From NCBI GenBank assembly GCA_963422755.1, contig OY730488.1: DNA of 64,000 nucleotides; one strand, written 5' to 3'. Source of the DNA: Dehalococcoidia bacterium. GTDB lineage: Bacteria > Chloroflexota > Dehalococcoidia > Bin125. The notes under the pieces were generated by a model. It was given only the letters and a program-made list of their open reading frames with translations, did not search any database and was not told the origin of the DNA. Shown in pieces: positions 44,611 through 57,122 of the stretch. The number at the start of each line of letters is the position of its first letter. Positions within the stretch are counted from its first letter, which is position 1. The translations under genes were made by a program, and so were the position numbers.

Positions 44611-46884
44611 TTACTGCCGAGCCATCGAACGGCGCTGTGATTCGAGCGCAGCCTGGAATGCGGCGTCGCCGGCGAACGGCGTGACATCGATCTCCACGCT
44701 CGCAATATCGCCTTCGAACTCGAACGGCGGGTCGTAGCGATCGCCCACTGGTGAGCGCCGATCGGCACCGATGTCACACTCGCCGTGCGCAAAGAGGACG
44801 CGCTGTTGCAGCGTGCCGACCTGCCCAACCGCGACGCGCTCACCATCGACGGACAGCTCCACTGCTGCGGGCCCTTTGACCGACTCGCAGCGGAACGACA
44901 CAGCGACCACGCACACGCCCGCCGGTAACGGCTGGTCGGACTGGATCCGTGACCAGTCGTCGTAGGCGTGATAGTCGAAGTGCAACCGGTTGCGCTGGAT
45001 GTAGAGTGTGAGGCCAGTCATGACCGAGCCGCGGTTGAAGATCACACCTTGCTGATCCTGTGATGAGCGAGAGATGGAGGCGCGCAGCGTCCAGCTGCCC
45101 AGATCGAGCGCCGGCGATGTTTCGACTGGCATGTGCGCGATCGGTGGGATGTAGCGGTAGCGCAAGCCTGCATGCGGCGCACCGGGACGCTGCGACGGCT
45201 GATTGATTTCCAGCGTGCGATCGTCGAGCGGCAGGACGCCATGACGCCCCGCCTCAATCCACCAGCGATCGATCAAGGCGCGCAATCGATCAGGCTCCGC
45301 TGCGGCAAGGTTGTTGGTCTCCGAGAAGTCGGTGTCGACGTGGTACAGCTCCCACTCATCGTCCGACCAGTCGCTGCCGCGTCGATGCCAGGTGACCGCC
45401 TTCCATCCGTCGACCCAGATCCCGCGATGGCCGAGCATCTCGAAGTATTGCGCTGACTTGGGCGTCGGCGCGTCCGGGTCCTCGAAGGCGTACGCGAAGC
45501 TCGTCCCAGCGATCGGCAGCTGCTCATGTCCGCGGTAACGCGTGGGCGGTTCAGCGCCAACGGACCCTAACACGGTCGGCAGCACATCGGAGACATGGTG
45601 GAACTGACGGCGGATGCCGCCGCACTTGCCGATCCCCTCGGGCCAGTGCGCGATCAGCGGCACGCGGACGCCACCGCCGTGCGTGTTCTGCTTGTACCAG
45701 CGCAGCGGCGTGTTCCCCGCCTGCGCCCAACCCCATGGATAGTTCGACGCCGAGCGCGGCCCACCGATCTCGTGCAGCCGTGACTGCACCTCTGCAAGAT
45801 CGTCGAGCGGTCTGAACACGCGCGGCTCGTCCGAGACGCCCTGCGGGCCGCCTTCCTGGGAAGCGCCGTTGTCTGCGAGCAGCAGGATCAGCGTGTTGTC
45901 GAGTTGACCTGACGCCTCGAGATAGTCGAAGAGGCGTCCCAGCTGCGCGTCGGTGTGCTCGAGGAACCCAGCGAATGCCTCCTGCAGCGCCAGAGCGAAG
46001 CGACGCTGGTGCTCCGACATCTCCGCCCACGCCGAAACGCCGCGATTCCGCGGGGCCAGCTCGGTGCCCTCGGGCACGATGCCCATCTCCAGCTGACGCG
46101 CGAACCATTCCTCGCGGACAGTATCCCAACCCTGCTCGAACCGCCCGCGATAGCGATCGATGTACTCCTGCGGCGCTTGATGCGGCGCGTGCGTCGCGCC
46201 CAACCCGACATAGAGGAAGAATGGCTGCTCCGAATAGACCGACTGATGATCGCGCAGATAGCTGGTCGCCTGATCGATCAGGTCTTCGGTTAGGTGATAG
46301 CCGTCCTCCGGCCGCGCCGGTGGTTCGATCAGGTGATTATCTCGAACGAGTTCGGGATAAAACTGGTCGGTTTCGCCGGAGAGGAACCCGTAGAAGCGAT
46401 CGAAGCCACGCTGCAATGGCCAGTCGTGGAACGGTCCCGCCTGCCCCACCGAGTCGACCGGCGCCAGGTGCCACTTGCCAACCATGAACGTGGCGTAGTC
46501 CTCGTCGGAGAGCAGTTCCGCGATCGTCGCGGCGCTGCGCGGGATGCTGCCGCGCATGTGGGGGAAGCCGGAATCGAACTGGGTGACGGCGCGTATGCCG
46601 ACCGTGTGGTGGTTGCGGCCGGTCAGCAGCGCCGCCCGCGTCGGCGAACACAGCGGCGTCACATGGAAGTTCGTAAAGCGCAGTCCGTTGGCCGCCAGAT
46701 GATTGATCCGCGGTGTCGCGATCGTGGAGCCGTAGCAATTGAGATGCGCGAAGCCCAGATCGTCGAAGAGGATGATCAGGACATTGGGACGATCCTGCGG
46801 CGCGGTCGGCAACGGCGGCCACCATGGCTCGGAATCGCGAAACGTGCGGCCAATACGACCAGCAAAATCCTCGTTGACTGACAT
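44611..46884 (-). CDS. arylsulfatase with an extra C-terminal domain of about 230 aa
   Basis: The sulfatase signature CSPTRAALLTGR (C/S-x-P-x-R, the FGE target site) is present. From the ATG at 46884 (MSVNEDFAGRIGRTF) the protein is about 757 aa. Confidence 0.85.
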   Translation of the reverse strand: MSVNEDFAGRIGRTFRDSEPWWPPLPTAPQDRPNVLIILFDDLGFAHLNCYGSTIATPRINHLAANGLRFTNFHVTPLCSPTRAALLTGRNHHTVGIRAVTQFDSGFPHMRGSIPRSAATIAELLSDEDYATFMVGKWHLAPVDSVGQAGPFHDWPLQRGFDRFYGFLSGETDQFYPELVRDNHLIEPPARPEDGYHLTEDLIDQATSYLRDHQSVYSEQPFFLYVGLGATHAPHQAPQEYIDRYRGRFEQGWDTVREEWFARQLEMGIVPEGTELAPRNRGVSAWAEMSEHQRRFALALQEAFAGFLEHTDAQLGRLFDYLEASGQLDNTLILLLADNGASQEGGPQGVSDEPRVFRPLDDLAEVQSRLHEIGGPRSASNYPWGWAQAGNTPLRWYKQNTHGGGVRVPLIAHWPEGIGKCGGIRRQFHHVSDVLPTVLGSVGAEPPTRYRGHEQLPIAGTSFAYAFEDPDAPTPKSAQYFEMLGHRGIWVDGWKAVTWHRRGSDWSDDEWELYHVDTDFSETNNLAAAEPDRLRALIDRWWIEAGRHGVLPLDDRTLEINQPSQRPGAPHAGLRYRYIPPIAHMPVETSPALDLGSWTLRASISRSSQDQQGVIFNRGSVMTGLTLYIQRNRLHFDYHAYDDWSRIQSDQPLPAGVCVVAVSFRCESVKGPAAVELSVDGERVAVGQVGTLQQRVLFAHGECDIGADRRSPVGDRYDPPFEFEGDIASVEIDVTPFAGDAAFQAALESQRRSMARQ

Positions 46885-46895
46885 GGCAATCTCCC

Positions 46896-47747
46896 TCAAG
46901 CGCTCCCGCAATCGATGCTGCGCACACAGCGGAAGCCGGTGTTGCTGGTGGCGCTGTCCGGCGTCAGCGCCAACCGGGCGGCGGGGCGGTAGCGCAGGCA
47001 GTAGCTCTCGTGGCACAGGAAGCTGCCGCCCTTGAGTACCCGCAGGTCGCCATCCGGCGGTCCAACTGGATCCATCGCCTCGGTCTGATCGTGATAGACG
47101 TCGAACCAGTCTGCGCACCACTCCCAGACGTTGCCGGTGGTGTTGTACAGCCCGTATCCATTGGGCGGAAAGTGGTCGACGGGGCAGGTGCCGTACCAGC
47201 CGTCGTCCTGCAAGTTGTCAGTTGGGAACACACCCTGCCAGACATTCATCCGGTGTCGGCCGCCGGGCGTCAGCTCGTCGCCCCAGGGGAACGCGGCCGA
47301 CTCTAGTCCACCGCGCGCAGCACGCTCCCACTGCGCCTCGGTCGGCAGATTGAGGCCAGCCCACTGTGCGTAGGCGCTGGAGTCGTGCCAGCTCACCTGG
47401 ACGACGGGATGATTGAGTCGCTGCTCGATGCTGCTCTGTGGGCCTTCGGGCTGTCGCCATGAGGCGCCTTCGACTGCGCGCCACCAGGGTGCGTCGGCGG
47501 CAGCTTGGGTCGGCGGAAAGTCATCGGGCAACAGGCCAGCGAACACGAACGACCAACCGCTCCGCTCCGACTCGGTCCGATAGCCGGTCGCCGCAACGAA
47601 GGCGGCAAAGGCAGTGTTCGACACTGCGCAGCTGCTGATCGCGAAGGCCGACAGCGAGATCGTCCGCAGCGGCCCTTCGCCGTCGCCGGGATACGCGTAC
47701 CGATCAGTGGACCCCATGGTGAATGCGCCTGCCGGGATGACGCTCAT
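46896..47747 (-). CDS. formylglycine-generating enzyme (FGE/SUMF1 family)
   Basis: MSVIPAGAFTMGSTD...WHDSSAYAQWAGLNLPTEAQWERAARGG...GNVWEWCADWF are classic FGE blocks. An alternative upstream start lies at 47885. Confidence 0.8.
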   Translation of the reverse strand: MSVIPAGAFTMGSTDRYAYPGDGEGPLRTISLSAFAISSCAVSNTAFAAFVAATGYRTESERSGWSFVFAGLLPDDFPPTQAAADAPWWRAVEGASWRQPEGPQSSIEQRLNHPVVQVSWHDSSAYAQWAGLNLPTEAQWERAARGGLESAAFPWGDELTPGGRHRMNVWQGVFPTDNLQDDGWYGTCPVDHFPPNGYGLYNTTGNVWEWCADWFDVYHDQTEAMDPVGPPDGDLRVLKGGSFLCHESYCLRYRPAARLALTPDSATSNTGFRCVRSIDCGSA

Positions 47748-47902
47748 AGCCAGAGCTGCTCTTCCTCCGCCTTCGGCCTGCCCAGCTGTCGGAGATAAGG
47801 CAACGGGCGCCGCGGAGACATCGACGCTCGCCGAGCGCTGAACCTGGTCGACAGAGGGAGCGCAACAATCACTCATGATCAGCACTCATGGTCGGCCTGC
47901 GC

Positions 47903-50191
47903 TCACTGCTGCGCCATCAACTCCCGGAAGGCATTGCGAGCGGCCTCGTAGGCCGGTCCCGACTTCGGATACGGCGTCACCGCAATCTCCACTGCGTGAA
48001 TCAACCCCTGGAACTCGAACGGCGCTGTGTACGACTCTGTCACTGGCGACTTACGGTCAGCGCCGATATCGGCACCGCCTCGTGATCCGAATCCGCCCCG
48101 CACGAGGAACGGCACGTCGCCCTCGCCGACACGCTCGCCGTTCAGCCGCAGCGTTACGTGGCCAGGCGCAGACGGCGCTTCGCCGTCCATACTGACGCCC
48201 ACTGTGCAGCGACCGTCGGGCAGCTCGACGTTGGCAGCAATCTGGGTGACCGCTGTGAACGCGTTGTAGTCGAAGCGCAGCTGGTTGTCCTGGATGTAGA
48301 AGCTGAATCCACCCATATTCGAGCCACGCGCGAAGATCACGCCGTCGCCACGGACTTCCGCCACGGCGTCGCGCTCGATCTCCGCTTCCAGGGTCCATGC
48401 ACCCAGACCGATCGCAGGCGCGATCTCACCAGGAATGTGCGACACCGGCGGGGTGTAGCGATAGCGCAAGCCCTGGTGCGGTCCACCGGGTCGCTGCGAG
48501 GGACCGCCGAGCTGGAAGCTGCGATCGTCGAGTGGCAGCACACCGTAGCGGCCCGCCTCGACCCACCAGCGGTCGATCAATCGGCGTAGACGCTCCGGTT
48601 CCGCGTCGGCGAGGTTATGCGACTCCGAGAAGTCCTCGGCGACGTGGTACAGCTCCCATTCATCATCCGACCATGGGTCGTTCTTCTGGTGCCGCGTGAC
48701 AGCCTTCCAGCCGTCGACCCAGATGCCGCGGTGTCCCAGCATCTCGAAGTATTGAGCTTCCTTGGCCGTGTCGGCGTGTGGATCCTCAAACGCGTACGCG
48801 AAACTCGTGCCGCTGACGGGCATCTGTCGCTGACCGGCGTACTCCTCAGGCGCGGTGGCCTGCACCGATTCCAGGACAGTGGGCAAGACGTCGGAGACGT
48901 GGTGGAACTGTCGGCGGAAGCTGCCGCGATCGCTGATGCGGTCGGGCCAGTGGACGATCAGCGGCACGCGGACGCCGCCGCCGTGCGTGTTCTGCTTGTA
49001 CCACTTGAGCGGCGTGTTGCCGACCTGCGCCCAGCCCCACGGGTAGTTGGGCGAGCTTTTCGGGCTGCCGATCAGGTGCAGCCGCGACTGCGCCTCATCA
49101 ATATCGTCGAGCAGCGGCTGGCCGTAACGGGCGGAGTCGGAGACGCCCTGCGGCCCGCCTTCCTGCGAGGCGCCGTTGTCGGCCATCAGCATCAGAATCG
49201 TGTTGTCGAGCTGTCCCGACTCCTCCAGATATCCAACCAGCCGACCGATCTGCTCGTCGGTGTGTGTGAGGAAGCCGGCGAACGCCTCCTGGAACGTAGC
49301 GAGGAATCGTTTCTGGTTCGCTGAGTACTCGTCCCACGCTTTGACGCCGGTGTTGCGAGGCGCGAGTTCCGTGCCCTCTGGAATCACGCCCAGTTCGAGC
49401 TGCCGTGCGTACCATTCCCGGCGCACTTCGTCCCAGCCCTGATCGAACTGGCCGCGATACCGCTCGATGTAGTCCGCTGGGACCTGATGCGGTGAGTGCG
49501 TAGCGCCCGTGGCGAAGTAGAGGAAGAATGGCTGCCCTGGATAGACCGACTGGTGATCGCGCAGGAATGCGGTCGACTGATCGACCATATCTTCGGTGAA
49601 GTGATACCCCTCCTCGGGTGCGCGCGGCGGATCGATCAGGTGGTTGTCGTAGACCAGCTCGGGGTAGAACTGGTCCGTCTCGCCCGAGAGGAAGCCGTAG
49701 TAGCGATCGAACCCGCGTTGCAACGGCCAGTCGTGGAACGGTCCGGCCTGCGAACAGGTCTCGGACGGATTGAGGTGCCACTTGCCGACTGCGAACGTGG
49801 CGTAGTGCTCGTCGCGGAGGATCTCGGCCATCGTCGACGCATTGCGGCTCATCGCGCCGCGCATGTTCGGATAGCCAGAGTCATAGCTGGCAATCGACCG
49901 CATCCCCACCGAGTGGTGGTTGCGCCCCGTCAACAGCGAGGCGCGAGTCGGCGAGCAGAGCGCCGTAACGTGAAAGTTCGTGAAGCGCAGGCCGTTAGCC
50001 GCGAGCCGATCGATGTTCGGCGTGGCGATCGTCGAGCCGTAGCAGCCCAGGTGCGAGAATCCGGTGTCGTCGAAGAGGATGATGACGACGTTCGGCCGAT
50101 CCTGCGGCGCCGTTGGCAGCGGCGGCCACCACGGTTCGGAATCGCGGAACGTGCGCCCAATCACCCCGCCGAAGGCTTCATCCTGGGTCAT
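47903..50191 (-). CDS. arylsulfatase (paralog) with a C-terminal extension
   Basis: Close paralog of 44611-46884 with the same N-terminus (GRTFRDSEPWWPPLPTAPQDRPNV) and the same C/SxPxR motif. From the ATG at 50191 (MTQDEAFGGVIG) it is about 762 aa. Confidence 0.85.
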   Translation of the reverse strand: MTQDEAFGGVIGRTFRDSEPWWPPLPTAPQDRPNVVIILFDDTGFSHLGCYGSTIATPNIDRLAANGLRFTNFHVTALCSPTRASLLTGRNHHSVGMRSIASYDSGYPNMRGAMSRNASTMAEILRDEHYATFAVGKWHLNPSETCSQAGPFHDWPLQRGFDRYYGFLSGETDQFYPELVYDNHLIDPPRAPEEGYHFTEDMVDQSTAFLRDHQSVYPGQPFFLYFATGATHSPHQVPADYIERYRGQFDQGWDEVRREWYARQLELGVIPEGTELAPRNTGVKAWDEYSANQKRFLATFQEAFAGFLTHTDEQIGRLVGYLEESGQLDNTILMLMADNGASQEGGPQGVSDSARYGQPLLDDIDEAQSRLHLIGSPKSSPNYPWGWAQVGNTPLKWYKQNTHGGGVRVPLIVHWPDRISDRGSFRRQFHHVSDVLPTVLESVQATAPEEYAGQRQMPVSGTSFAYAFEDPHADTAKEAQYFEMLGHRGIWVDGWKAVTRHQKNDPWSDDEWELYHVAEDFSESHNLADAEPERLRRLIDRWWVEAGRYGVLPLDDRSFQLGGPSQRPGGPHQGLRYRYTPPVSHIPGEIAPAIGLGAWTLEAEIERDAVAEVRGDGVIFARGSNMGGFSFYIQDNQLRFDYNAFTAVTQIAANVELPDGRCTVGVSMDGEAPSAPGHVTLRLNGERVGEGDVPFLVRGGFGSRGGADIGADRKSPVTESYTAPFEFQGLIHAVEIAVTPYPKSGPAYEAARNAFRELMAQQ

Positions 50192-50365
50192 CGTCCACTC
50201 CCTGTCCGATCCAGATGCCTGTCGCACAAGATAGAGATGCCACAGCAGACTGTCGTCACAGGAGCGCTCGACGAGAGCTCAGCTGTGCGCCACGTGCACA
50301 CCAGGCTCGCTAGCATTCCTGCAATGACCGCCACAGGGCCGTGACTCTGCGACTCCGGAGGACAG

Positions 50366-51730: not shown

Positions 51731-52803
51731 TCACTCCGCCTGACTCCGCTGGTGACGATACAGCGCCCGCGCATCCAGGATGTGCTGGGGACACTGCTCC
51801 TGCTCCACCTGTTGCGCCACCGGTCGCGTGCGAGGCTCCGCCACGGTATACGTTTCCTCGCGGACCCGAGTTTCTTTCTCCACGTACGGTTCGACTCGAT
51901 ATTTCGTCACCGACACGGTGTATTCTTCCTCACGGTAGCGAGTCTCGGTTTCCTTGTACTCCTCAGTGCGGTACCGCGTCACCGTTGTGGTGTAGGGAAT
52001 TCGGCGCGTTCGCTCTTCTGGCGCGGTGTACGACACTTCCCGGTAGCGAGTCTCCATCGCGATGTACGACTCAGTGACCTGACGCTGCACCTGAACCGGT
52101 ACCTTGCGCACACGGTCCGCCGCAACCCGGCGGTACTCCGTCACCATCACCGTATAGGGAACCCGAACCGTATAGCTCTGCCGATACGGACCGGCGATGC
52201 CGGAGACCCAGCGATACCTTGTCTCGGTACGGTAGCGAGTCCGGGAGACCTGCACAGGGACGCTCACCCACGTGCGGTAGCCCTCATCACGATACACCGT
52301 TTCCGTGACGGTACGCGTGCGATACCGAGTGACCGGTACCTGGTACGGCTCACGGCGCGTTCGCGGTACTTGAACCGTATACTTCTCGTCGCGATAAAAG
52401 GTGACCGTGTCTTGATACGGCACCTCGCGGGTGCGCGGGACTTGCACAGTGTACGGTACCCGGCGCGTTCGCGGTTCCTGTTCGGTGTACGGAATCTTCC
52501 GAGTCTTCACGACATCGACCGTGTACTCGACATCCCGAGTCTTCTCGACGGTCTCGAAGTATTCCTCTTTCACGACCTGAGATACCAGTTTGGTGGGGCA
52601 AGTCGGACCGCAGACGTTCAGCGTATGACGGAGCGTCTTGGTCGTATCGCGCTTGCGCCACTTCTCTGCGTCAGTGTCCCACTTGTAGCGCGGTTCCTTG
52701 TAGTCAAAGGTGACTTCGATTGTTCGACAATTACTTGGATAAGCAAGTTCAAGAGCCAGCCGCTGAGCAGCAGCCACATCCGCGTTAGAGTGGACGATTG
52801 CCG
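51731..52803 (-). CDS. tandem-repeat protein of about 20 imperfect 12-residue Tyr/Thr/Val/Arg/Glu-rich repeats; downstream portion of a gene whose frame is split by a poly-C tract
   Basis: It translates as ...YTVQVPRTREVPYQDTVTFYRDEKYTVQVPRTRREPYQVPVTRYRTRT...YTVSVTKYRVEPYVEKETRVREETYTVAEPRTRP... GC3 on the minus strand is about 80% in the sampled stretch, which supports coding. The in-frame upstream part of the track ORF (to 53026) looks like non-coding read-through. Confidence 0.5.
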
Positions 52804-52832
52804 CCCCCCCCCCCCCCCCCCCCCCCCCCTTC
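52804..52832. repeat. homopolymeric tract of 29 consecutive C (poly-G on the coding strand; encodes a Gly run)
   Basis: Read directly from the sequence. It lies at the junction of two minus-strand ORFs that are in frames differing by 1. Confidence 0.95.
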
Positions 52833-53282
52833 GGACAAACGTTCGCTTGTGTACTCCTCGTACACTGCGACGATATCGGCCAAATTGCGCTCCGCCTTGT
52901 CCTGCGCCTCAGCTCGTTCCGCCGCGTGCGCCGCCGGGCCCGCTTCATAGTCGCGGTGAGCAACAATATGTTTGGCCATCGGACCGCACGTGTCAAGGAT
53001 TGCAGCGGATGGATAGCCTGACGCATCAGGACCAGACAGCTTCGAAACGCACCAGCTGCTAAGCTTATGAGGGCCGTGCCCTCCAGGATGGATCACTGGT
53101 GGAACCGGAGGTGTGACTAAATGATTAATTGCGCTCCAGATTGCGTCCACACCACCTACTTCGTGGATTATGACACCGCATGCGCTGCCAATGACGATGA
53201 CTATCGCACCCCCTGTGGCCCAGTGGTTGGCAACGCTACCGGGAGCGCTGTGGCAAGCCCTTTCGTAAGGAGTATACCGCAT
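52833..53282 (-). CDS. upstream (N-terminal) portion of the repeat-protein gene in a different frame; likely start at 52979 (MAKHIVAHRDYEAGPAAHAAERAEAQDKAERNLADIVAVYEEYTSERLSE-Gn)
   Basis: ORF 52785-53282 ends in GGGGGGGGGGGNRPL just past the tract. A 1-nt shorter tract would fuse it with 51731-52803. Whether the start is at 53282 or 52979 is uncertain. Confidence 0.35.
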
Positions 53283-53800: not shown

Positions 53801-54013
53801 CTCCAACTCCTCTCTCAGCCAGCAACGCACCAGCTTGCCGCAGAGACTAGCTGATGGCTGCTCTGCGCTGGCGCTGCAAAGAGCTGATGGATTGCGACGC
53901 GGCGAAAGCAGTGATCGAGCGCGCGGTCGCCGCAAATGATTTGGCTACGGTGCGGCGTCTCAGCTCAGCGCTTATGCGCAGTGCAAGTCATCCCATCAAT
54001 CATCCCGGTCCCC

Positions 54014-57052: not shown

Positions 57053-57122
57053 TCCAGCTACCCTGCGCGTGATATGCGCGCGTGATATGTGACCGGCGCA
57101 GTGATCTGAGAGGCGGCGACGC

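Follow-up and report, generated by a model that had tools for sequence, protein, structure and literature searches.

A length-variable poly-G tract in a split orphan gene of Dehalococcoidia, a candidate contingency locus in decay

The window, as we call the whole 64,000-nucleotide stretch of Dehalococcoidia DNA analysed here, carries on its minus strand a split gene for a repeat protein that is interrupted by a run of 26 G. G runs of other lengths occupy the same site in two near-identical genomes and in a second species, and the existence of a long tract with large length differences between strains is credible from these sequences. On balance we read it as a genuine hypermutable poly-G tract in a contingency gene, of which the window holds a copy that would be locked in the OFF state and decaying. 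A switch by intragenic poly-G is already known; the new elements are the host, the orphan β-repeat protein and the extreme length.

The tract and its effect on the reading frame

A direct count and a period-1 array detected by TRF identify an uninterrupted C26 on the plus strand, that is G26 on the coding strand (Table 1). The first-pass annotation had given the tract 29 nt, at 52804-52832. This was wrong: the C run ends at 52829 and is followed by TTC at 52830-52832, and the terminal Gly stretch of the upstream ORF has ten residues and not 11 (..SEGGGGGGGGGGNRPL*). The frame logic of that annotation is unaffected, since either length, 26 or 29, leaves a remainder of 2 on division by 3. The exceptional length that it had pointed out is borne out at 26, which is far beyond chance: an i.i.d. 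base-composition model of the 64 kb predicts ~32 G/C runs of at least 7 nt and ~2e-8 of at least 26 nt. A homopolymer scan finds no similar tract elsewhere in the window: whatever the base, the next longest run has 6 nt. By base, runs other than C26 reach at most 6 nt (C, G), 5 nt (A) and 4 nt (T), a depletion that strong selection against slippage may have brought about. GGG is a minor Gly codon (14.5%, GGC accounting for 62%) and the GGG run is therefore not a product of codon usage.

The tracts of 26, 10, 9 and 7 G described below all reach the length, about 7 nt or more for G/C, at which a simple repeat in a coding region is slippage-prone. Their lengths were read from consensus assemblies, where 7- to 10-mers and the 26-mer may be off by at least one base, and the frame states given for G7, G9 and G10 depend on these consensus lengths since homopolymer calling can miss by one base or more.

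The ORFs on either side of the tract, ORF B and the repeat ORF (ORF C), lie one frame apart as had been annotated. In silico replacement of the tract by runs of 20 to 34 nt gives one ORF of 515-518 aa, starting at the ATG at 53282, when the length is 22, 25, 28 or 31. With lengths of 0 mod 3 (21, 24, 27) a stop occurs ~58 codons past the tract, and with lengths of 2 mod 3, 26 included, it occurs 4 codons past the tract. The earlier proposal that 28 or 31 nt would yield a single protein is correct for this ORF; the size attached to it, 415-515 aa, falls short of the ancestral protein, which has ~684 aa.

ORF B contains conserved Cys/His and a helical region (HxxxHxxxExGPAxHAAERA..VAVY) and terminates as ..YTSERLSE-G10-NRPL*, 4 codons beyond the tract. 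ORF C reads ..AAIVHSNADVAAAQRLALELAYP.. and continues with ~270 aa of 12-residue V/T/R/E/Y repeats followed by a C-terminal helix. The window copy of the gene sits in a 2.3-kb segment of lower GC content. One homopolymer is enough to make gene callers split a gene into two or three 'hypothetical proteins', here P0014, P0015 and P0020.

Table 1. Coordinates of the split gene and of its elements in the window
Feature	Position	Strand	Description
Homopolymeric tract	52804..52829	-	Part of poly-Gly coding stretch; shifts the frame of the downstream repeat domain
ORF A (P0020), 199 aa	53201..53800	-	N-terminal hydrophobic/TM segments (hydropathy) and start of the putative extracytoplasmic part; N-termini of P0002/P0003 align
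Second lesion, 1-nt deletion (AA->A)	53216..53217	-	GGGCCAACAGGGGG -> GGGCC-ACAGGGGG on the coding strand; pairwise and three-way alignments
ORF B, 165 aa (gene-caller version P0015, 64 aa)	52785..53282	-	Middle domain
ORF C	51731..52803	-	C-terminal part, third frame; gene-caller start GTG 52777 (P0014, 348 aa)
Repeat domain	51731-52540	-	Residues ~395-665 of the repaired product; periodicity analysis
Lower-GC segment	51650..53950	.	56-60% GC vs ~65% in the flanks; holds only the split gene

Tract polymorphism among near-identical genomes

Two sister assemblies, ERZ21742402 contig_1 (L001) and ERZ21742370 contig_4 (L002), belong to the species of the window; each of the three assemblies is a single contig of ~2.34 Mb. 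The three are collinear over 13 kb, where they are 98.6-98.9% identical and show five indels in total. Repeat number varies between these close strains (26, 10 and 7) with constant flanks. The window sequence is GAA-G26-CGGCAATCGTCC, out of frame, and L002 has GAA-G10-CGGCAATCGTCC, in frame (P0016, ..SEGGGAAIVHSNADV..). L001 reads GA-G7-CAATCGCCC, out of frame, and would need G8 or G5 to be in frame. The window and L002 have the same tract flanks and zero mismatches over ~1 kb downstream, yet they are 16 G apart, from which it follows that the tract evolves much faster than its surroundings. Strain-resolved long-read MAGs can show such tract polymorphism directly.

Errors of sequencing or assembly, which the first-pass annotation had put forward as an alternative, would mean that the window in truth has a short tract, perhaps the G10 of L002, and that 26 arose from base-calling, consensus, polishing or poly-G 'dark-cycle' reads. 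Long-read consensus errs mainly at homopolymers, the shorter L002 tract lies between identical flanks, and 26 nt is unprecedented among characterised tracts. We nevertheless regard a pure artefact as unlikely. Both flanks join exactly as in the sister assemblies, with no chimeric junction of the kind that poly-G read tails would give. The five indels in 13 kb of the three assemblies include no other stray 1-nt homopolymer error; the lone 1-nt indel is shared by two assemblies and the others are not homopolymer errors, hence indel noise is low in these assemblies. Homopolymer errors of long reads do not usually take the form of an over-call, nor do they usually reach 16 bases, and with a wrong value of 26 the lengths of 7, 9 and 10 would still differ at one conserved site. 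The tract is not associated with a contig end, an unrelated join or general homopolymer noise. A chimeric join or foreign DNA at the tract was rejected, GC content being alike on both sides and both sides being collinear with the sister genomes.

Other differences between the three assemblies were recorded along the same region. SNPs are distributed in blocks: the window and L001 differ by one mismatch over ~47.8-51.8 kb and by 2-5% in neighbouring 500-nt bins, the blocks of L002 differ from those of the window and L001 (45.7-58.8 kb), and two of the three contigs are 100 bp apart in length. This pattern suggests recombination between co-existing strains or a mosaic consensus of a strain mixture. 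A 13-nt indel at ~54001-54013, intergenic and upstream of the split gene, is found in the window only. At ~57089-57101 a 13-nt tandem duplication (CATATCACGCGCG x2) is present in the window and L001, L002 having a single copy. L002 also shows an 18-nt in-frame indel at ~47831, near the boundary of ORFs 46896-47885 and 47903-50227. A search of JGI metagenomes with the exact tract-flank pattern gave 0 matches; the degenerate pattern AAQRLALxLAYP retrieved three loci (L005-L007), discarded as unrelated chance matches.

Irreversible lesions in the window and sister strains

The window gene is split twice, at the tract and between ORF A and ORF B, as the N-termini of its homologues show by matching the end of P0020, upstream of ORF B. 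This is seen with the P0002/P0003-type N-terminus that follows the signal peptide, AHPPSEENxSTDTVP, which corresponds to the end of P0020 and not to ORF B. The cause is a 1-nt deletion (Table 1) common to the window and L002 and absent from L001, which separates ORF A, carrying the predicted signal/TM part, from ORF B at a point where the homologues are continuous. ORF A includes a signal-anchor-like segment (..LLRVAILPLLITAPLAIVANSVSA|HPPSAENQATDTVP..). The frameshift at ~53216 truncates this ORF, whose counterpart in L001 reads through to give a 299-aa product. L001 has a lesion of its own, a CAG->TAG nonsense codon at L001 5897-5899, 25 codons upstream of the tract. In silico repair of both window lesions yields a 684-aa protein. 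All three strains thus differ from the intact P0002 and P0003 by lesions that are not readily reversible.

Correction of the tract alone cannot restore the full window protein since the fixed deletion at 53216 already detaches the signal/anchor part, and the full protein is not switchable by the tract in any of the three strains because each carries a lesion that slippage cannot revert. The slipped-strand phase variation proposed in the first-pass annotation therefore keeps its footing in the 26/10/7 alleles, in the in-frame G10 and in the G9 of another species (see below), and fails for the window copy, which the tract alone cannot restore.

These lesions bring forward the main rival to a contingency gene, a plain pseudogene with a slippery linker. 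The gene would be dispensable, the G run a mutational hotspot that was never adaptive, and its length of 26 the outcome of neutral drift. That one species has two independent irreversible lesions (the 1-nt deletion, the nonsense codon) speaks for it, as does the lower-GC segment, which may be acquired DNA. Counts of synonymous and nonsynonymous differences between strains, compared with the flanking genes, rest on too few substitutions to be informative, although a dN/dS not clearly below that of the neighbours would go in its direction. The absence of a stop over 348 codons of the window repeat domain goes against it.

Orthologous sites in other lineages

Scanning one genome for each GTDB species added two loci, L003 and L004. 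L004 (OZ242034.1/ERZ25068685, a 'Dehalococcoidia bacterium' MAG with a 2.46 Mb chromosome) codes for a protein with 48-49% amino acid identity to the window protein and has G9 at the DNA-orthologous site, GAGTACACAGGCGAACGTTTGTCTCAAA-G9-CC, out of frame. G9 is its sole lesion, an uninterrupted 734-aa ORF being obtained with G10 or G7. A change in repeat number alone would accordingly toggle the product in L004; in L002 the tract is already in frame, and the window also needs repair at 53216. The L004 contig is named ctg6947_128x_c, implying a circular, high-coverage contig, and it presumably comes from a HiFi sponge metagenome project, where such contig names and pipelines are used. In the L001, L002 and L004 loci (13-15 kb each) the tract is the longest homopolymer present.

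Homologues that lack the tract show no frameshift at the site. L003 (SB0664_bin_15) has an intact gene with only CGGGGGCAG at this position (G5), and L011 has G3. The identical P0002 protein is found on 10 contigs from several samples, the gene being stable where the tract is absent. The neighbourhood of P0002 is syntenic with that of L004, with sulfatase-ADH-hydrolase-SDR genes on one side and a peroxiredoxin gene on the other.

In another Chloroflexi lineage (L008-L013; ERZ23491743, ERZ23491992, GCA_009841505.1) the gene is split near ..GITT|AIGGGC... Its N-terminal 215 aa (P0025) are followed by an IS1595-family transposase, and its C-terminal 479/407 aa (P0018/P0004) come directly after an N6/N4-methyltransferase-HNH gene, with a DUF5906 gene nearby. 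P0003, intact with 681 aa (L015/L016), is encoded downstream of AAA_25 and BT4734-like (primase N-terminal) genes, and a conserved 114-aa ORF follows both the P0003 and the P0018 copies. Some family members may travel on a mobile element.

For the pseudogene alternative, the IS1595/methyltransferase-HNH insertion is a further sign of dispensability, and three of the four tract alleles (window, L001 and L004) are out of frame. It accounts poorly for the preservation of at least 7 G at the orthologous site of two species whose proteins are 48-49% identical and whose genomes are otherwise without runs above 6-7, as point mutations usually break up uninterrupted runs that are not maintained. The 734-aa ORF of L004 is otherwise intact, which shows that this copy is not long dead. 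We hold a simple pseudogene with a hotspot to be a real possibility, though not the expected one.

Protein family and predicted structure

Searches with the fused product as query found P0002/P0017 (569 aa, from 'Chloroflexi bacterium' MAGs), P0003 (681 aa) and P0004/P0018. P0002, P0017 and P0003 are single ORFs that span both halves of the window gene, with 51-57% identity, and P0004/P0018 likewise run across the tract site in one frame. A profile search for further members returned the same five clusters, and the new entries of a further protein search were limited to the fragment of L004 itself and the IS-disrupted P0025. The sequences indicate that this is an orphan protein of 680-730 aa, belonging to a tiny family in a few Chloroflexota/Dehalococcoidia lineages. 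The close relatives being MAGs of Chloroflexota/Dehalococcoidia, a mycobacterial source, which GC content and neighbouring genes had suggested, was discarded.

The repaired 684-aa protein begins with hydrophobic segments and a signal-anchor-like segment identified by hydropathy. Its middle part has invariant Cys and His and two long helices, after which come the linker encoded by the tract, a conserved NADVAAAQRLALELAYP motif and the repeats. The latter extend over ~270 residues with a strict 12-residue period and an even/odd alternation, are composed to 70% of V, T, R, E and Y, and precede a C-terminal helix. P0002 has a signal-peptide-like N-terminus (..GVASA|HPPSEEN), and TM-like segments and a conserved Cys are found in the family. 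The signal-peptide-like N-terminus and the conserved Cys fit what is expected of an exported protein.

No relative in Pfam, NCBIfam or the PDB was detected. Pfam-A searched by hmmscan at E <= 0.1 gave solely a sub-threshold match to TCL1_MTCP1, the NCBIfam and PDB sequence searches found none, and the weak relatives P0005-P0023 have no Pfam match. The Pfam YTV repeat family, which we took as a possible home of the ..PYTV.. repeats, was dismissed since this hmmscan gave no YTV match.

An AlphaFold2 model built from a shallow alignment has low overall confidence (pLDDT 57, pTM 0.28). The repeats are predicted to form one hairpin of two antiparallel strands of ~130 residues (pLDDT 70-80), and the tract region a disordered linker (pLDDT <50). 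In the homologue alignment and in the model, the tract site corresponds to four inserted residues within a linker of low confidence that connects two helices. Such a ~130-residue two-stranded ribbon, if real, would be unusually long and is without significant match in the PDB. Foldseek of the model against the PDB gave nothing below E 0.07; its hits were generic long β-hairpins of pore toxins and phage tails, which were set aside as relatives. Together with the sequence features, this low-confidence model leads us to infer that the product may be secreted or exposed at the cell surface.

Comparison with known tract systems

Most of what has been characterised of simple-repeat phase variation comes from pathogens and commensals of vertebrates. 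A literature search for homopolymeric-tract phase variation in Chloroflexi found no paper. The closest likeness is to the poly-G/poly-C loci of Neisseria, Campylobacter, Helicobacter, Haemophilus and Bordetella (lgt, pgtA, hmbR/hpuAB, Campylobacter capsule/LOS), which combine a G/C run inside the reading frame with an exported or surface-related product, as is predicted here. As in these contingency loci, length varies among close relatives and the Gly run lies in a tolerant region, and length mod 3 would set full-length versus truncated product. Their hosts are vertebrate pathogens, whereas here the host is an uncultured member of Chloroflexota/Dehalococcoidia, probably a sponge symbiont. The meningococcal tracts treated in the literature have 5-13 nt and a deletion bias is reported for Campylobacter at G10-11 (PMC4085013); at 26 nt the window tract has about twice the usual upper length. 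It is also the sole tract in 64 kb and not one of many, it is accompanied by additional irreversible lesions, and it is known from consensus assemblies whereas switching in the pathogens has been characterised.

Homopolymer-tract frameshift variants, for example glpK 7C, and phase variation by such tracts are described in the Mycobacterium tuberculosis complex (PMC10334774). The likeness lies in a coding G/C run in a high-GC genome and in reversible frameshifts proposed as an adaptation. The mycobacterial tracts have about 7-9 nt, compared with alleles of 7 to 26 nt in an orphan repeat protein here.

Reduced endosymbiont genomes, where poly-A tracts are rescued by polymerase slippage, resemble the present case in that a long homopolymer interrupts a gene of a small (2.34 Mb), probably host-associated genome. 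They differ from it in the nature of the run, which here is of G in a GC-rich and otherwise run-depleted genome and is known at the DNA level. In some endosymbionts and IS elements, frameshifted genes are rescued by slippage of transcription at long homopolymers. By analogy with these, RNA polymerase might slip on the window tract, whose length exceeds that of the RNA-DNA hybrid, and give mRNAs in all three frames, so that some C-terminal product would always be made. Documented cases concern A/T runs, and the deletion at 53216 would still remove the export signal; we consider recoding at the RNA level highly improbable.

A proposed contingency gene in decay

Returning to the contingency gene, which we favour, the long G run in a run-poor genome, the tolerant linker, the use of GGG, the same site in two species and the varied lengths and frames all fit such a locus. 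The known behaviour of poly-G leads us to infer that slipped-strand mispairing during replication adds or removes G at the tract. Lengths of 1 mod 3 (10, 25, 28) would join the N-terminal domain to the β-repeat domain through a poly-Gly linker, and at other lengths translation would end 4 or ~58 codons past the tract. Since the linker appears to tolerate insertions, ON alleles of differing length should all be functional.

The tract would be older than the split of the two species. In L004 it would keep the gene off by itself, a classical and presumably reversible phase-OFF state. In the window species the switch would have been overtaken by irreversible lesions, the deletion in two strains and the nonsense codon in the third. 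A tract locked OFF in this manner, freed from selection on frame and linker length, may then have drifted to 26 or a similar length; we propose this expansion without constraint as the reason why it stands far above the usual range.

A bolder version sees a conserved, adaptive poly-G switch of a giant β-hairpin surface protein in sponge-associated Dehalococcoidia, hence a contingency locus in uncultured mutualists or commensals of an invertebrate, that evades phage adsorption or host recognition, with tracts longer than 25 nt and perhaps read-through by polymerase slippage. We put it forward as tentative, its adaptive value in particular being conjectural.

Two elements suggest a marine-sponge habitat. 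The SB0664 sample series, which holds P0002, also yielded Poribacteria bins of sponge symbionts (PMC7883664). The window has two large sulfatase genes at 44611-50227 (ORFs of 836 and 774 aa) and, between them, ORF 46896-47885 at the position of the FGE-sulfatase (formylglycine-generating enzyme) gene of the sister loci. The same types of genes, a sulfatase/FGE cluster, flank the homologue in L017 and L014. The cluster fits a lifestyle of degrading sulfated polysaccharides, for instance those of the sponge matrix.

For the window organism the biological consequence is probably minor, the gene being broken elsewhere already, and the L004 orthologue is a better target for follow-up than the window copy. 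If the tract of L004 works as a switch, the same bet-hedging device would operate in uncultured Chloroflexota, probably in sponges, and there would be a concrete gene family for testing. A working switch would point to a surface structure under strong and variable selection, for instance one that serves as a phage receptor or is recognised by the host.
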